Shown here piece after piece: positions 229 to 4,934 of a stretch of 4,934 bases of DNA. Position 1 is the stretch's first letter. Each line of letters begins with the position of its first letter. The position numbers were made by a program, and so were the translations under genes. The stretch is from a virus (taxonomy: Duplodnaviria; Heunggongvirae; Uroviricota; Caudoviricetes): the IMG/VR virus record IMGVR_UViG_2623620491_000007. The stretch is one strand, 5' to 3'. The notes under the pieces are model-generated. The model saw nothing but the letters and a program-made list of their open reading frames with translations. It was not told the origin of the DNA and did not search any database.

Positions 229-243
229 TTGCCGGAGGCGCTT

Positions 244-660
244 ATGGCAAAAGTATTTACACCAGAAGAGCGGGAAAAAATTAAAGGGCAGGTTGTTGAA
301 CTTGTACGTCTGAGCGGTCGCGAGACGTTACGGGCACTGGAGGCTAAAACCGGTGCATCAAGGTATTACATAAGCACTCTCGCCAGAGAACTGGTCGCCA
401 GTGGTGATGTTTACAATTCAGGCTACGGATTATTCCCGTCTGAGCAGGCGCGTAAAGACTGGCAAAACGCCCGCAAAAAACTATCCAGGGCAAAGGCGAA
501 GAAACCGGTTGTGGTTGATCCGGACCTTATCTGGTCATTACCTGACGGAGAAATACGTCGCTACGATAGCCGTCTAAACATAATCTGTAGCGAGTGCCGG
601 AAGAGTGAAGTTATGAAACGTGTACTGGCATTTTATCAGGGAAATCTTCGGTATTTATAG
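244..660 (+). CDS. ren: Ren-like protein (lambda Ren family, exclusion-associated), 138 aa from ATG 244
   Basis: C-terminal ...ICSECRKSEVMKRVLAFYQG resembles the lambda Ren C-terminus (...FKECRQSAAMKRVLAVYG...) as I recall it. SD GGAGG at 234-238 lies 5 nt before ATG 244; the ORF-track start at 229 is a TTG with no SD. An HTH-like segment GRETLRALEAKTGASRYYISTLARELVASG is present. Position after a replication-type gene matches lambda P-ren order. Confidence 0.55.
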   Translation: MAKVFTPEEREKIKGQVVELVRLSGRETLRALEAKTGASRYYISTLARELVASGDVYNSGYGLFPSEQARKDWQNARKKLSRAKAKKPVVVDPDLIWSLPDGEIRRYDSRLNIICSECRKSEVMKRVLAFYQGNLRYL

Positions 661-736
661 ACGTTACTAGATCAAAGAGCATTAGTTCATACGTAAATTG
701 ACATTTTTCTGGCACAGGGGAGAGCTAGCGTGGTTG

Positions 737-771
737 TCCGCTTTGTGCCAGAAGCGGAAGTTGCTAAAATG
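737..771. repeat. Left copy of a palindrome-containing repeat: TCCGCTTT-N7-AAGCGGA, then 5 nt, then CTAAAATG
   Basis: TCCGCTT (737-743) is the reverse complement of AAGCGGA (752-758), giving a 7 bp stem with an 8 nt loop; CTAAAATG follows at 764-771. The same blocks recur at 2959-2988. No T-run on either strand, so not an intrinsic terminator. Confidence 0.5.
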
Positions 772-867
772 GTTTACCGTGTCCAAAGGAGTCAGGGGCA
801 ACAACGCGATATTGCTGACTGAGGTTTGGATCTAATCCTAGGACATGTCAGGAGCAATGCTAATCTA

Positions 868-896
868 TTCATTAAAGCAGAGTATATGCCTATAAT
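868..896 (+). promoter_or_regulatory. Candidate sigma70 promoter for the AT-rich cassette (-35 TTCATT 868-873, 17 bp spacer, -10 TATAAT 891-896)
   Basis: Perfect -10 hexamer TATAAT at 891-896 with a weak -35; it sits about 85 nt upstream of the SD and ATG of the first cassette gene. AT-rich context means other hexamers are possible; not tested. Confidence 0.3.
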
Positions 897-979
897 TTAG
901 AACCTTGCTATGGACATGAAAATGTGTAACATGCAATAGATCTCTACACACAGCAGGATTCCTACACCAAGGAGTGTTT

Positions 980-1381
980 ATGATTAACGAATCCAGTCCT
1001 TTCCCAGACAACGAAATTATATCCTTCTATGACTGTACTGGCATGCCCATTTTTTATCTACATAGTGATGGTGAAAGTTTTTATCACTATGACGGAACCC
1101 CACTAGCCTATTTATATAATAATGAATATATAGTTTCATATTCAGGTCAGTATTTAGGTTGGCTATATAATGGGAGTATTATAGATTATAAAAATGGGGC
1201 TTATGTTTTTTTTACAGCTTATAGTTCTGGTGGGCCATCGCGACCAAGCCGAAAGTTTCGACCAAGTCGATTATCAAGAAAGAGCAGACCTGCTAAATTA
1301 AGTCGTAATAGTCGACCGTCACGACCTTCAAGACAAACCAGATGGAGCGAGCGAAGCAACATGAGTTTTTTCAGTAGTTAA
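980..1381 (+). CDS. Hypothetical small protein (133 aa) with a Tyr/Gly-rich repeated N-terminal domain and a basic Ser/Arg/Pro-rich repetitive tail
   Basis: SD AAGGAG at 969-974 lies 5 nt before ATG 980 (the ORF-track start at 974 is a GTG inside the SD). N-terminal half shows repeated motifs (FYDCTG..IFYL, SFYHYDGTPLAYLY, EYIVSYSGQYLGWLY, IIDYKNGAYVFF); C-terminal tail is SRPSRKFRPSRLSRKSRPAKLSRNSRPSRPSRQTR. Very AT-rich. Confidence 0.65.
   Translation: MINESSPFPDNEIISFYDCTGMPIFYLHSDGESFYHYDGTPLAYLYNNEYIVSYSGQYLGWLYNGSIIDYKNGAYVFFTAYSSGGPSRPSRKFRPSRLSRKSRPAKLSRNSRPSRPSRQTRWSERSNMSFFSS
1236..1335 (+). repeat. Degenerate in-frame tandem repeats (about 18 bp units, e.g. CGACCAAG at 1241-1248 and 1259-1266) encoding the SRPSR-type peptide repeats
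   Basis: Direct reading: CGACCAAG recurs 18 bp apart, with further TCGACC/CGACC units at 1312-1326; this corresponds to the repeated S-R-P-S-R peptide units in the protein tail. Confidence 0.5.
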
Positions 1382-1459
1382 ATTCTCGTTGTATTAAAAA
1401 ATAGATTGATTTGAAAGTTAGCATATTTACCTACTATCAAATAATGAAAAGGGTTAAAG

Positions 1460-2875
1460 ATGAGTAATCTTCCTACTACAGTAAATACAACCGCAGTAAC
1501 CACTGGTGTTGATAATTTCACAACGTCATTAACTACTTACCTCACCGATTTGAATCTTCCGGCAAAGGGCGTTTTAGTCGGCAATGATCAGAGGTACACT
1601 GTAATTGATAACTTCCCAAAGGTTATTGGTGGTATTGACAGTGCAAGGCGTTCAGATTCGTTATATCTATCAAAGTTTATTGCAGCGTGCGGCGCTGGCC
1701 TTTTTGATGCAGCACTCAATTTTTTATGGAATGAAACAGTAGTAAATTTGAGATGGAAGGTTTCCCTTAACGATATAGACTATTTTTATGACAGTATTGT
1801 CACTGACACAAAAAGAAGAGATAAGCTTAAAACTGTAGATGATTTAGTTAATATAGAGGAGTGGGAGCTTGTTAAGGGTTGCCACTTAACGGGATTACTT
1901 TCGGATATAGGTTTTAAACATCTTGATTATATAAGAGATATGAGGAACTGGGCTAGTGCAGCACATCCTAACCAAAGTCAGCTAACAGGATTCATGCTCA
2001 TCTCATGGCTTGAAACCTGCATCAAAGAAGTGATTGCGAAAGAACCAGAACCTTCTGCATTACAAATAAAGAGAGTACTATCTAACATCAGAGGCGCTAA
2101 CTTAGAAGGCGATGACTTAGCCCATATAAAATCTGCGATGGAAAGCTTACCTCAAGATGTTGTTGATTCTTTCTTAAGAACTATATTTGGGATGTATACT
2201 AATGATAACGCGGCTGTACAGGTTAAGAATAATATAAAAGGAATTGCAAAAAAATGTTGGGATCTTTCGTCAGAAACTACGAAGTATAGTTGTGGTATAA
2301 GATATCAATCTTTTGCAGCTAACGGAGAGAGAGCTAGGAAAGATGCGGCTAATGAGTTTTTAACTACTGTATCTGGTCTTCCATATCTTCCATCAGACTC
2401 TTTGGCTGTTGAAATATCAATCAGAGTGACAAATTTATACCAGGCCCATTTTGGATGGAATAATTTCCATAATGAACCTGCTCATGCATCCTCTTTGGCA
2501 GCATATATCTCCTCTGCTGGGAATGTCCCTGACTCAGTTCGATTTGAATATGTTAAGACTATAGTTTTGTGTTATTTGGGCAACAGCTATGGAGTGTCTA
2601 ATATGGCCGTTTCTTACTATGAAGAAATGATTGGTAAGTTCGGCGAGGCAGAGTTAAAAGAGTTCGTAAAAATAATTTATGATAAAGACGTGATATCTAG
2701 GCTTGCAACTCAAACATGTGCTTCTCGATATAAACATATAGCATCCAATTTTGTTAGCAGAACTACCAATCAAATAACCTCGCAAGCTCTTAATGCGATC
2801 ATAGCATCGACTGCTCTCCAGTTACCGAACCTATCGAAAGCAACGGCCTACGATAAACTTATTCGCTCATACTAA
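1460..2875 (+). CDS. Hypothetical protein, 471 aa, no recognisable catalytic or NTP-binding motif; candidate effector of a phage-exclusion/defence cassette
   Basis: Long uninterrupted ORF in AT-rich DNA; SD-like AAAAGGG at 1447-1453 lies 6 nt before ATG 1460; stop TAA at 2873-2875 is followed by an intrinsic terminator. Thr-rich low-complexity N-terminus (residues about 5-27). One R-x6-H element (R162...H169, RNWASAAH, nt 1943-1966) is reminiscent of, but not diagnostic for, HEPN-type Rx4-6H motifs. No Walker A, no nucleotidyltransferase, RT, TIR or Sir2 signatures seen by eye. Confidence 0.8.
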   Translation: MSNLPTTVNTTAVTTGVDNFTTSLTTYLTDLNLPAKGVLVGNDQRYTVIDNFPKVIGGIDSARRSDSLYLSKFIAACGAGLFDAALNFLWNETVVNLRWKVSLNDIDYFYDSIVTDTKRRDKLKTVDDLVNIEEWELVKGCHLTGLLSDIGFKHLDYIRDMRNWASAAHPNQSQLTGFMLISWLETCIKEVIAKEPEPSALQIKRVLSNIRGANLEGDDLAHIKSAMESLPQDVVDSFLRTIFGMYTNDNAAVQVKNNIKGIAKKCWDLSSETTKYSCGIRYQSFAANGERARKDAANEFLTTVSGLPYLPSDSLAVEISIRVTNLYQAHFGWNNFHNEPAHASSLAAYISSAGNVPDSVRFEYVKTIVLCYLGNSYGVSNMAVSYYEEMIGKFGEAELKEFVKIIYDKDVISRLATQTCASRYKHIASNFVSRTTNQITSQALNAIIASTALQLPNLSKATAYDKLIRSY

Positions 2876-2911
2876 ATACTGTGAGGCAAAAACAGGCTTG
2901 GATCAGATAAC

Positions 2912-2938
2912 AGCCCTCTCTATTCGAGGGCTTTTTTG
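2912..2938 (+). terminator. Rho-independent terminator ending the AT-rich cassette
   Basis: Stem AGCCCTC (2912-2918), loop TCTATTC, stem GAGGGCT (2926-2932), then TTTTTTG; it lies 37 nt after the TAA of the 471-aa gene. Confidence 0.65.
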
Positions 2939-2958
2939 TAGGAATGCTTAATTGAATA

Positions 2959-2988
2959 TCCGCTTTTCGCTCAAAGCGGACTAAAATG
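2959..2988. repeat. Right copy of the palindrome-containing repeat: TCCGCTTT-N7-AAGCGGA directly followed by CTAAAATG
   Basis: TCCGCTTT (2959-2966) pairs with AAAGCGGA (2973-2980) around a 6 nt loop; CTAAAATG at 2981-2988. Blocks are identical to the left copy at 737-771 apart from the loop and a 5 nt insertion in the left copy. Confidence 0.5.
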
Positions 2989-3027
2989 TTGGCTTGTGTC
3001 TGACTTAGAGCATTTAAGGAAGTGCTG

Positions 3028-3246
3028 GTGGTGACTGGTTGTTGTGTTCCATTTCTACAGAACAAAATCACAGAAACTATACCCAATAGTTGTATTGAAT
3101 CACTGACGAGACAGCCTCATATTTATCAGGACTGGTGTGCGTCTAATACAGGAGGTTGTCGTGCTGGTTCTCAAATGTGCGCTGGCTATTGCGGCTGTAA
3201 TGGCAATTTATTGTCTTGCTATTGTTCTTATGGATCGCCTTTTTGA
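3028..3246 (+). CDS. Possible small cysteine-rich protein (about 72 aa, 14 Cys); coding status uncertain
   Basis: ORF-track frame 3022-3246. AAGGAAG at 3015-3021 is too close to GTG 3022, so GTG 3028 or 3031 is the more plausible start. C-terminal CAGYCGCNGNLLSCYCSYGSPF is Cys-dense. No homolog recalled; it fills the gap between the cassette terminator and the hok promoter. Confidence 0.2.
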   Translation: MVTGCCVPFLQNKITETIPNSCIESLTRQPHIYQDWCASNTGGCRAGSQMCAGYCGCNGNLLSCYCSYGSPF

Positions 3247-3257
3247 CTGATTTCATA

Positions 3258-3286
3258 TTGGCGAGGTAACGGGAGTTAAGTAGAAT
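3258..3286 (+). promoter_or_regulatory. Candidate promoter of the mok/hok mRNA (-35 TTGGCG 3258-3263, 17 bp spacer, -10 TAGAAT 3281-3286)
   Basis: Hexamers with canonical spacing; the predicted start near 3293 gives a leader of about 113 nt before mok and a transcript of about 420 nt to the terminator, in line with hok-family mRNAs. The predicted 5' end is complementary to a segment downstream of hok. Confidence 0.35.
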
Positions 3287-3405
3287 GCCTGCGGGTGCTT
3301 GGGGCTATCTGTCTCAGGCATGAACACCAAAAGGCAGATAGAGAAGAGCCCCAGTTAACATTACGCGTCCTGCAAGACGCTTAACATTAATCTGAGGCTC
3401 AATCT

Positions 3406-3618
3406 ATGAACGGCAAATCTAGGTTAGCCTCTTACGTGCCGAAAGGCAAGGAGAAGCAGGCTATGAAGCAGCAAAAGGCGATGTTAATCGCCCTGATCGT
3501 CATCTGTTTAACCGTCATAGTGACGGCGCTGGTAACGAGGAAAGACCTCTGCGAGGTACGAATCCGAACCGGCCAGACGGAGGTCGCTGTCTTCACAGCT
3601 TACGAATCTGAGGAGTAA
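3406..3618 (+). CDS. mok: Mok-like reading frame: in-frame N-terminal extension of hok whose translation enables hok translation (70 aa)
   Basis: ATG 3406 is preceded by GAGG at 3394-3397 (8 nt spacing) and runs in frame through hok to the same stop. This mirrors chromosomal mokC/hokC annotation, where both share a stop, as I recall it. Confidence 0.5.
   Translation: MNGKSRLASYVPKGKEKQAMKQQKAMLIALIVICLTVIVTALVTRKDLCEVRIRTGQTEVAVFTAYESEE
3463..3618 (+). CDS. hok: Hok/Gef-family type I toxin (small membrane-depolarising peptide), 51 aa
   Basis: Translation MKQQKAMLIALIVICLTVIVTALVTRKDLCEVRIRTGQTEVAVFTAYESEE matches the Hok/Gef/RelF family: hydrophobic transmembrane helix followed by the conserved TRKxLCE..R..G..EVAAF/VF..YE block. 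Closest to HokD/RelF and Gef from memory. SD AAGGAG at 3448-3453 lies 9 nt before ATG 3463; stop TAA 3616-3618. Confidence 0.85.
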   Translation: MKQQKAMLIALIVICLTVIVTALVTRKDLCEVRIRTGQTEVAVFTAYESEE

Positions 3619-3676
3619 GAGACCCGGCGGGGGAGAAATCCCTCGCCACCTCTGATGTGTCAGGCATTCTCAACGC

Positions 3677-3710
3677 ACCCGCATTTAACCCGTTTCGGCG
3701 GGTTTTTTGT
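3677..3710 (+). terminator. Rho-independent terminator of the hok transcript
   Basis: GC-rich hairpin (AACCCG 3687-3692, loop TTTCGG, CGGGTT 3699-3704; alternatively ACCCGC 3677-3682 with GCGGGT 3698-3703) running into TTTTTTGTT at 3703-3711. Confidence 0.55.
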
Positions 3711-3893
3711 TGCGCGCTGAATACGCAGGGGGAAAAATAACCATATATTTGATTATATACACAACAAAAAATAAAAGTCATTGTACCTGCACATTAAACA
3801 ATCCAATATACGGCGTGAAATAAATATTTTTCAGATTAATATTTTTGTCTCTATGTGGATATAACCGTTTGTACTTATAAACCTGGAGGCATC

Positions 3894-4106
3894 GTGGAAA
3901 AAATAAAGAAACTATTTAGTAGCAAATACGCAGTCATACGTCGTGATGACCTGTCAGTTATAGTCGAAATGGATTACTTCCCTGAAACCCCAAAATCAAT
4001 GATGTATCGTAATGGTCGAAAGGTAATTTTTTTACCGATGAGGGTAAGTGACATTATGGGAAATGATAAACTGCTGGATGAATTGCGAGTCAGAGCATCC
4101 TGTTAG
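3894..4106 (+). CDS. Hypothetical small phage protein (about 70 aa from GTG 3894)
   Basis: ORF-track frame 3855-4106. The best start is GTG 3894, 4 nt after GGAGG (3885-3889). It is preceded by an AT-rich, promoter-like intergenic region and ends 71 nt before the DUF1367-like gene. No motif recognised. Confidence 0.35.
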   Translation: MEKIKKLFSSKYAVIRRDDLSVIVEMDYFPETPKSMMYRNGRKVIFLPMRVSDIMGNDKLLDELRVRASC

Positions 4107-4177
4107 TATTGGCATTAATTCTGTTATACTACATAACGGGCTGAACACCCATTCTACTGCGCCAGCGGAGAACTACG

Positions 4178-4777
4178 ATGGCGCATATACAACTGGTCAA
4201 ACAAACCTCTTCCGGATTACTTCTCCCGGCGACGCCGGAGAGTTGCGATTTTTTGCATCAAATCAAAATAGGTGAGTGGATACACGCAGACTTTAAGCGT
4301 GTGCGTAACTACGCATTTCACAAGCGTTTTTTTAAACTCCTGCAACTGGGATTCGATTACTGGACTCCGAGCGGTGGGGTGATCACGCCTCGAGAACGAG
4401 AACTGGTATCAGGCTTCGTTGAGTACCTGTGCGAATCAGTAGGTCGGGAACATACGCCAGCTCTGAGCGAAGCCGCAGAGCAATATCTGAATACAGTTGC
4501 AACACGCAGAACCCGGGATACGGCCTTACTCAAGTCATTTGACGCTTTTCGCGAATGGGTAACCATTCAGGCCGGATTTTACACCGAACATTTTTATCCG
4601 GACGGTAGTCGTGGGCGCAGGGCAAAATCTATCGCATTTGCGAACATGGACGAAACCGAGTTTCAGCAGGTTTATAAATCTGTACTGAATGTGCTGTGGA
4701 ACTGGATCCTGTTCCGTAAATTTTCCTCTCCGGAGGAAGTCGAAAATGTGGCCGCACAGTTACTGGAGTTTGCGTAA
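4178..4777 (+). CDS. DUF1367-family lambdoid phage protein (nin-region gene), 199 aa
   Basis: GGAG at 4166-4169 lies 8 nt before ATG 4178. The product (MAHIQLVKQTSSG...FHKRFFKLLQLGFDYW...) matches my recollection of the conserved DUF1367 proteins found upstream of DUF1364/rusA/Q in lambdoid prophages. Stop TAA 4775-4777. Confidence 0.8.
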   Translation: MAHIQLVKQTSSGLLLPATPESCDFLHQIKIGEWIHADFKRVRNYAFHKRFFKLLQLGFDYWTPSGGVITPRERELVSGFVEYLCESVGREHTPALSEAAEQYLNTVATRRTRDTALLKSFDAFREWVTIQAGFYTEHFYPDGSRGRRAKSIAFANMDETEFQQVYKSVLNVLWNWILFRKFSSPEEVENVAAQLLEFA

Positions 4778-4934
4778 TGGTGGATTTACGTAAAGCGGCG
4801 CGGGGGCAGATGTGCACCGTCAGAATTCCTGGCTACTGCAATCACAATCCCGAAACTTCTGTGCTGGCGCATTACAGGCTGGCGGGGACGTGCGGAACAG
4901 CGACAAAACCACACGATATGCAGGCAGCGATTGC
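4777..4934 (+). CDS. DUF1364-family (YbcO-like) Cys-rich lambdoid phage protein, 5' portion; continues past the window end
   Basis: ATG 4777-4779 overlaps the preceding stop (TAATG). Translation MVDLRKAARGQMCTVRIPGYCNHNPETSVLAHYRLAGTCGTATKPHDMQAAIA resembles the YbcO/DUF1364 N-terminus (MxDLRKAARG..C.VRIPG.CN.NPETSVLAH.R) from memory. Confidence 0.8.
   Translation, partial: MVDLRKAARGQMCTVRIPGYCNHNPETSVLAHYRLAGTCGTATKPHDMQAAI

Follow-up and report, generated by a model that had tools for sequence, protein, structure and literature searches.

The closest described counterparts of the locus considered here include three kinds. P2 prophages and P4 satellites have hot spots in which conserved flanks enclose a changing cargo that includes recognised defence systems (Rousset et al., 2022; PMC9122126). 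Cernunnos, a single-gene integron cassette of Vibrio cholerae with a PF21784 domain, confers protection against phages and was reported to have its homologues mainly in Escherichia prophages (Darracq et al., bioRxiv 10.1101/2024.07.02.601686). An independent screen yielded it a second time, and the 4-fold beta-flower fold was described in 2023 (PMC10584680). The third kind comprises the HEPN abortive-infection and toxin proteins (AbiD/F, AbiU2, AbiV, Abi_C/DUF4145, HepN toxins, Csm6), with their Rx4-6H motif. Here, we analysed a stretch of 4,934 nucleotides (nt) from a Caudoviricetes record (IMG/VR IMGVR_UViG_2623620491_000007), called the window in the following. It is part of a Rac-like Escherichia coli prophage and contains the accessory-gene slot of this lambdoid element, which is occupied by an AT-rich cassette of 2.25 kb. 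In this cassette, a beta-flower protein of the Cernunnos type is combined with a protein from a large HEPN-like family that is uncharacterised. The combination is new, rare and mobile, and as a finding it stays within the known kind of prophage defence hot spots and HEPN-type Abi proteins. We regard the cassette as a plausible anti-phage defence unit, and a defence role of this prophage moron, with its two abortive-infection-type candidates, appears fairly probable.

A cargo slot between DUF977 and hokD

An earlier sequence-only reading had interpreted the interval between the replication and nin genes as three consecutive exclusion modules, i.e. a Ren-like gene, an AT-rich unknown cassette and a hok/mok toxin locus. 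The elements of this interval that are needed for the argument are as follows:

244-660, + strand: DUF977 or 'Ren-like' gene (Pfam PF06163, E 1.8e-27; PHROG 142, E 1e-43)
736-2981, + strand: two-gene cargo cassette of 2.25 kb (homology to copies in other genera; GC content)
737-758, + strand: left junction hairpin, TCCGCTT-tgtgccag-AAGCGGA (TCCGC-N8-16-GCGGA pattern)
868-896, + strand: promoter-like site, TATAAT at 891-896 with a weak -35 element TTCATT at 868-873 (read from the sequence)
980-1381, + strand: 4-fold beta-flower protein of 133 amino acids (aa) (Pfam PF21784, E 7.8e-28)
1460-2875, + strand: all-alpha protein of 471 aa, predicted HEPN-like, with a helical-repeat C-terminal half (PHROG 27609, function unknown)
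2912-2932, + strand: intrinsic terminator of the cassette (7-bp stem with five GC pairs, T run)
2959-2980, + strand: right junction hairpin, TCCGCTTT-tcgctc-AAAGCGGA (second match of the same pattern)
3293-3708, + strand: hok mRNA, consisting of the leader with the Sok target, mok (3406-3618), hok (3463-3618), the 3' fold-back and a terminator (3687-3704)

A megablast comparison with 5,426 complete E. coli genomes, which is the scope of all genome counts given below for this species, found the DUF977 end and the hok end of the interval in thousands of prophages with differing genes between them. The slot is bounded by the conserved early gene DUF977 on one side and by a conserved segment of a small open reading frame (ORF), hok-sok and rem on the other, and only the AT-rich part (736-2981) is true variable cargo. 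More than 15 cargo types occur between DUF977 and hokD: QueH, alone or together with a methyltransferase; hok with Doc; sce7726 with a Beta protein; DUF4406; DUF551; a dATP/dGTP pyrophosphohydrolase; FRG, DUF5677 or DUF4209 proteins; a STAS-like protein with an ATPase; an ATP-dependent nuclease; an alpha/beta hydrolase; DUF7167; KilA-N; SIR2; S-adenosylmethionine (SAM) methyltransferases; a TPR protein; and an MFS transporter (SIR2 and the ATP-dependent nuclease were identified by RefSeq annotation). Near-empty slots exist as well: strain A20 has a 233-bp filler in place of the cargo, and in T7Express hokD follows directly after DUF977. Since the cargo between the conserved flanks differs so widely among sister prophages, the interval is clearly not invariant across related phages; invariance was the finding that the sequence-only reading had named as speaking against a defence island.

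The same reading had expected accessory and defence functions to cluster here, and sister prophages indeed hold PADLOC-recognised systems at exactly this site. A PADLOC scan of the cargo from four sister prophages gave matches in two of them. The three genes of the LD39-1 cargo match Hp1, Hp2 and Hp3 (E 5e-41 to 4e-11), and the two genes of the DEC5E cargo match cll and PD-Lambda-2_C/beta (E 2e-28 and 3e-41). Judged by these model names, we take the matches to represent the Rst_3HP, gop-beta-cll and PD-Lambda-2 systems.

In its conserved flanks around changing cargo with recognised defence systems, the slot thus resembles the P2 and P4 hot spots. Unlike them, it is located in the early-right part of Rac-like lambdoid prophages, with DUF977 and hokD on its two sides, and a pair of similar 22-nt hairpins bounds the present cargo. 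A link to P2 exists in one Enterobacter copy of the cassette (locus L094), which is located downstream of P2-type tail genes (GpU, GPD). A literature search found no description of the DUF977-hokD cargo slot.

The cassette and its hairpin-bounded ends

Composition and distribution show the cassette to be a discrete, horizontally mobile, AT-rich unit, and its layout, with a predicted transcription, fits that of a classical moron. As the sequence-only reading had noticed, the block is AT-rich: its GC content is 33-40%, compared with about 50% in the flanks, and both genes (980-1381 and 1460-2875) are located inside it. The "unknown cassette" of that reading thus consists of two genes and is not a single unit of unknown content. 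Copies of the complete segment 736-2981 with 93-94% nucleotide identity exist in Enterobacter mori (L092-L095) and Proteus mirabilis (L089-L091), where their surroundings are unrelated: in E. mori a chromosomal site adjoining an Rhs toxin and HigBA, and in P. mirabilis an integrase island located at smpB, in which SMODS and S_4TM genes come next. In addition, a Pantoea plasmid carries a 5'-truncated copy that corresponds to window positions 1262-2985. Within E. coli the cassette is rare, with two carriers among the complete genomes.

Atypical composition and an own terminator, both typical of morons, are present, and the promoter is predicted from a conserved TATAAT with a weak -35 element. 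The TATAAT (891-896) does not vary among five cassette copies, one of which is the Pectobacterium copy with 80% identity; in a consensus promoter scan, the promoter-like site at 868-896 stayed below the threshold. The terminator at 2912-2932 is conserved in the cassette copies, and the spacer between the two genes measures 77-78 nt and is conserved in E. coli, Enterobacter and Proteus. The sequence-only reading had assigned a hairpin or terminator to each of its three modules. Canonical terminators follow the cassette and hok only, while the hairpins at the Ren-like gene have no T run.

Upstream of the -10 box, the noncoding stretch 736-880 is strongly conserved among the cassette copies, including Pectobacterium with its overall identity of 80%. 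It contains a bulged hairpin at about 790-822 (AGTCAGGGGCAA...TTGCTGACT), and the stretch may act as a regulatory site or encode a small RNA. Two candidate small ORFs (730-822 and 910-939) were rejected, as their start codons are not conserved among the cassette copies.

Both ends of the cassette are located within similar 22-nt hairpins, TCCGCTTTGTGCCAGAAGCGGA (737-758) and TCCGCTTTTCGCTCAAAGCGGA (2959-2980). They are the only two matches of the pattern TCCGC-N8-16-GCGGA in the window, with 0.03 expected, and the left one belongs to the repeat family D2 and the inverted pair I1. The borders of homology coincide with these positions. On the left side, the homology of the cassette with other elements begins at 734-745, and the backbone homology of other prophages stops at 758-767, at the left hairpin. 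On the right side, the cassette homology stops at 2975-2985 in Enterobacter, Proteus and Pantoea, and the right hairpin represents the left end of a widespread segment (2955-3278). In four genera, the mobile cassette has these hairpins at precisely its two ends. The hairpins likewise delimit the LD39-1 cargo with the Hp1-3 genes and the near-empty site of A20, to which we were led by a chimeric 'empty-site' query of joined left and right flanks that matched mostly via the likeness of the two hairpins. Further hairpin positions are 171-190 and 3504-3523 in L099, 2637-2656 in L100, 5276-5297 and 7499-7520 in L092, and about 6488-6507 in L105. A less strict version of the hairpin pattern, searched in all loci, gave no useful information.

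The hairpins may be either recombination sites or merely conserved junction sequences. An integron cassette would be characterised by attC together with IntI, and here we found no integrase beside the window cassette and 22-nt hairpins at both ends. An attC is a single, longer site, unlike these paired hairpins.

Two candidate proteins in one cassette

The product of the first gene (980-1381) contains the PF21784 domain (E 7.8e-28, cut-off 25 bits). In the AlphaFold2 (AF2) model, strands extend across residues 14-68 with predicted local distance difference test (pLDDT) scores of 85-90, a further strand of two residues lies at 77-78, and the tail is disordered and of low confidence. This basic tail is conserved in 20 homologues as (S-R-P-S-R/K-x) repeats and ends with RWSExSNxSFF. 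RefSeq starts the gene 21 codons downstream, which gives a product of 112 aa (L001, 7043-7381). Since the N-terminal segment MxNExxPFPENEI is conserved in the 20 homologues and AAGGAG precedes the ATG at 980, the longer product of 133 aa is supported. With Cernunnos the protein has in common that it is a small single protein with a PF21784 domain; the conserved SRPSR-repeat tail sets it apart, and its anti-phage activity is putative.

The 471-aa protein encoded by the second gene (1460-2875) has at least 1,722 homologues. At 35-66% identity, 197 species loci were recorded, among them loci of Bacteroidota, Firmicutes, cyanobacteria, Chloroflexota and Patescibacteria as well as of several groups of archaea, a range across bacteria and archaea that argues for extensive horizontal transfer. 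The family is present on 90 plasmids, and no relative was found in 50,697 phage genomes. In an alignment of 75 homologues with 47-85% identity there is an invariant block, Y-I-R-x-M-R162-N163-W-A-S-A-A-H169-P-N, in which R162, N163 and H169 do not vary in any sequence. The resulting R-x6-H (R-N-x5-H) agrees with the R-x4-6-H motif of HEPN domains, including a polar residue after the arginine, with a spacing at the long end. The best structural matches of the protein are HEPN domains, and individual members of the family give recurrent sub-threshold Pfam matches to DUF4145, Abi_C, HEPN_AbiU2 and HEPN_RiboL-PSP (counted as HEPN-type by name or description), which are localised to residues 60-200 and persist when the scan is limited to this region. 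The C-terminal part of about 270 residues forms a helical repeat with weak armadillo-like matches.

Taken as a whole, these data make it likely that the N-terminal half is HEPN-like, which falls short of demonstrated membership in the HEPN family. What the protein has in common with the HEPN abortive-infection and toxin proteins is the R-N-x5-H motif and the occurrence of its gene on its own, in mobile elements and next to genes for defence; its best structural matches point to a possible HEPN fold. It differs in its sequence, which matches none of these families significantly, and in its length of 471 aa with the helical-repeat extension of about 270 aa; its RNase activity is putative. A farther-reading proposal would combine both aspects of the cassette: the hairpin pair would mark an undescribed kind of hairpin-bounded cassette and would be the place of exchange for accessory and defence genes, inside the Rac-like prophage slot as well as between prophages, plasmids and integrative islands of different genera, and the 471-aa protein would at the same time found a pan-prokaryotic HEPN-type abortive-infection family contained in no defence catalogue. 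As a combined claim, we consider this improbable.

The neighbours of the 471-aa homologues include SMODS and S_4TM in Proteus; CD-NTase with Cap15, DUF4145 and small integrases in Enterobacter hormaechei; HigBA and Rhs in E. mori; CbtA/CbeA in Serratia; and HicB with Phd on small Clostridium plasmids. In a rough tally across about 70 species, about 18 of 134 nearest neighbours are of defence type, a raw count without background rate. By model, these are the PADLOC candidate PDC-M52B (5), specificity subunits of type I restriction systems (4), PvuRts1I/SRA (2), CAP12/Pycsar TIR (2), AAA_15/AAA_21 (2), Fic (2) and the PADLOC candidate PDC-S29 (1). The neighbourhood evidence for defence is suggestive, not decisive.

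In E. hormaechei (L096), two genes for tyrosine recombinases of 200 aa (4043-4645 and 7226-7828) enclose a DUF4145 gene and a homologue of the 471-aa protein with 66% identity, next to CD-NTase and Cap15. The site is the chromosomal budR/acetolactate-decarboxylase locus, which is also the site of the cassette in E. mori. This suggests that the budR locus is an Enterobacter defence hot spot with its own recombinases.

Besides, the distribution of the two genes bears on whether they form one obligate two-component system, with the beta-flower protein and the 471-aa protein as sensor and effector or as antitoxin and toxin. For such a system one can adduce that the pair is transferred as a unit in E. 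coli, Enterobacter and Proteus with its 77-78-nt spacer kept, and that a single terminator follows the second gene. The homologues tell a different story. Among 80 species loci with a 471-aa homologue, none has a beta-flower neighbour and there is no conserved neighbour, the sole recurrent one being a cyanobacterial pair in five related loci. The Pantoea plasmid retains an intact 471-aa gene (96% identity), whereas its beta-flower gene is reduced to a 3' stump. Conversely, the beta-flower gene stands alone in Pectobacterium, and in Candidatus Scalindua and related metagenome contigs (L086-L088) it always follows a gene for a 726-aa protein with a faint SMC_N match. Cernunnos, moreover, acts as a single gene. 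An obligate two-component system is very unlikely on this evidence, and the evidence for separability is stronger than that for co-transfer. Therefore, we regard the two genes of the cassette as separate single-gene candidates whose linkage is incidental. The beta-flower loci of L086-L088 adjoin HEPN_AbiV or SLFN_AlbA_2 (Schlafen-type) genes, and the Scalindua-type locus may be a different two-gene system that contains a beta-flower protein.

Conserved flanks and the proposed function of the cassette

According to the sequence-only reading, the Ren-like gene and hok/sok would be independent exclusion modules that form a compact defence island together with the cassette. The label of PHROG 142 ('Ren-like exclusion protein'), the completeness of the hok/sok locus, an early report of T4 exclusion by hok/sok (as cited in PMC13047441) and the adjacent, co-oriented arrangement of the three elements speak for this interpretation; co-orientation holds for the entire window, in which all substantial ORFs are on the + strand.

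For the DUF977 gene, the Ren-like assignment is based on PHROG grouping and position: lambda Ren belongs to the same PHROG and is likewise located after the replication genes. The direct likeness to lambda Ren is confined to 20 C-terminal residues with 60% identity (BLASTP, pairwise E 1e-6), which include the common motif ECRxSxxMKRVLAxY. The Pfam DUF977 model gives no match to lambda Ren, and the proteins differ in length (96 aa in lambda, 138 aa in the window). Moreover, lambda Ren shields the phage from Rex and does not exclude others. A literature search on DUF977 returned nothing relevant, and an exclusion role would be hypothetical.

The hok/mok toxin locus had been recognised correctly and is complete. 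Hok (51 aa, 3463-3618) has a Hok/Gef domain (PF01848, E 3e-23) and is overlapped by the mok frame (3406-3618); the leader at 3293-3468 is a full-length match to the Rfam family RF01794 (sok/hok-leader; 104 bits, gathering score 59). In the minimum-free-energy (MFE) and centroid folds of the hok mRNA (3293-3708, z -5.9), the 5' sequence GGGUGCUUGGGG pairs with the region of about 3675-3685 in the manner of the tac/fbi type. A promoter-like site (3258-3286) precedes the locus and a terminator (3687-3704) closes it. Toxin, mok overlap, sok-matching leader, 5'-3' fold-back and terminator are shared with the hok/sok loci of plasmid R1 and of chromosomal hokD, whereas the present locus differs in being a conserved element of the prophage backbone and not variable cargo. 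The reported reduction of T4 propagation was not seen again in a re-test of 2026, in which hok/sok gave no protection against T4 in MG1655 or BLR (PMC13047441). In the only two E. coli genomes that carry the window's cassette, a minus-strand DUF1971/TehB gene takes the place of hok, which indicates that hok is dispensable at this slot.

Above all, thousands of prophages have DUF977 and hokD next to their cargo, of whatever kind this is, and both are therefore backbone and not acquired modules. Three independent exclusion modules are thus highly improbable. What endures of the compact defence island is a site that gathers accessory and defence genes; its three-module structure is replaced by one cargo cassette between two backbone elements.

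K-12 MG1655 matches the window only at about 3449-3711, that is, in the coding region and the 3' end of hokD, and lacks the leader present here. Its hokD (relF) is presumably located just downstream of relBE in the Qin prophage, and relBE may hold the equivalent cargo position there. A sub-threshold Rfam match at 3627-3708 to IsrK, a small RNA of Salmonella prophages, was rejected: it reaches 26.6 bits with a gathering score of 50 and coincides with the 3' fold-back and terminator of the hok mRNA.

Further features on both sides of the slot are as follows:

10-228, + strand: 3' end of a DUF1627 (YdaW-like) gene, the last gene of the Rac-type replication block (Pfam PF07789, E 2.7e-37)
3161-3250, + strand: small ORF for a hydrophobic peptide of 29 aa (GTG start, AGGAGG 5 nt upstream)
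3855-4106, + strand: Rem homologue of 83 aa, conserved backbone (PHROG 1813, E 2.8e-35)
4178-4777, + strand: DUF1367 gene (PF07105, E 6e-98; PHROG 319, 'NinB/Orf'; nin-region equivalent)
4777 to the window end at 4934, + strand: start of a DUF1364/YbcO gene (PF07102, E 5.6e-26; nin-region equivalent)

The nearest complete genome is that of E. coli PF9285, in which the region is situated inside a Rac-type prophage with the order racR, ydaS, ydaT, ydaU, ydaV, DUF1627 (annotated there after ydaU/ydaV), then the region, then DUF1133 and the lysis genes. The placement of the interval between replication and nin genes is thereby borne out, with ydaU, ydaV and DUF1627 upstream and DUF1367, DUF1364/YbcO and DUF1133 downstream. 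None of the complete E. coli genomes matches the whole window, and the best two cover 81% of it. The assignment of the Rem homologue agrees with other prophages, where a 252-nt ORF of equal length and position after hokD is annotated as 'protein Rem'. The 29-aa ORF, which the sequence-only reading had not listed, is unannotated and encodes VLVLKCALAIAAVMAIYCLAIVLMDRLFD, a predicted membrane peptide. It is intact in all eight prophage copies, with 9, 4 and 2 variable sites at codon positions 3, 1 and 2, respectively, and the surrounding segment 2955-3278 is present, unannotated, in 1,776 of the 5,426 genomes, with or without hok downstream. A small membrane protein and a toxin-like peptide are both conceivable as its product.

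For the cassette itself, we propose that it would be transcribed in the lysogen from its own promoter. The 471-aa protein would stay inactive as long as its helical-repeat region has not sensed a component or a consequence of infection by another phage; its HEPN site would then cleave RNA and arrest the infected cell, while the beta-flower protein would act independently. Abortive infection based on RNA cleavage by the 471-aa protein is considered the most likely mechanism, with a confidence lower than that for the defence role.

Several observations weigh against a defence role or against the HEPN assignment on which this mechanism builds. The slot also takes non-defence cargo (QueH, MFS transporter, chaperonin), and many neighbours of the 471-aa homologues are housekeeping genes. 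A profile search with the 20 beta-flower homologues reached 29 proteins, none of them from Vibrio; since these relatives include none from V. cholerae, the link to Cernunnos is that of a shared Pfam family. For the 471-aa protein, no HEPN-family profile matches significantly and all links are sub-threshold (E 0.045-0.16), nor is there a significant PADLOC, NCBIfam or Pfam model. An hhalign comparison with a DUF4145 protein that neighbours a homologue reaches E 0.13, with the motif itself aligned (LDYIRDMRNWASAAHP with VDRMRKLRNEAS--HL), and a comparison of the family profile with an AbiV-HEPN neighbour protein gave no meaningful alignment. Sequence searches of the PDB, with a profile of the full family or of residues 60-200, found nothing. 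Foldseek with the whole protein gave no significant PDB match, only weak armadillo/importin-like ones (E > 0.03), and nothing in the viral models of BFVD. In the structural model, finally, the motif is located at a helix end and loop and not clearly at a helix start.

Alternatively, the cassette could be a selfish or host-fitness moron without an anti-phage role, i.e. a stand-alone, toxin-like addiction gene, a regulator on a catalytically inactive HEPN-like scaffold or a counter-defence gene of the prophage. Against this, the invariant R/N/H triad in 75 sequences of 47-85% identity argues for catalysis, the family recurs beside CBASS-type, restriction-modification, TIR and Abi-type genes, and recognised defence systems occupy the same slot in sister prophages. 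The absence of relatives from the 50,697 phage genomes and from the viral structure models would also be unexpected for a phage counter-defence gene. We consider a moron without anti-phage role rather unlikely and favour defence.

If the cassette is active, the little-studied beta-flower proteins of the Cernunnos type would gain an example from an E. coli prophage, and a large family absent from Pfam, NCBIfam and PADLOC, which extends from Enterobacterales to cyanobacteria and archaea, would join the anti-phage repertoire. This family can easily be tested by cloning a single gene. The matching hairpins at both ends of the cassette give a lead, open to testing, to the way in which such cargo moves, and the slot with its simple conserved flanks, DUF977 and the hok segment, can be mined across thousands of E. 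coli genomes in the same way as was done for P2 and P4.

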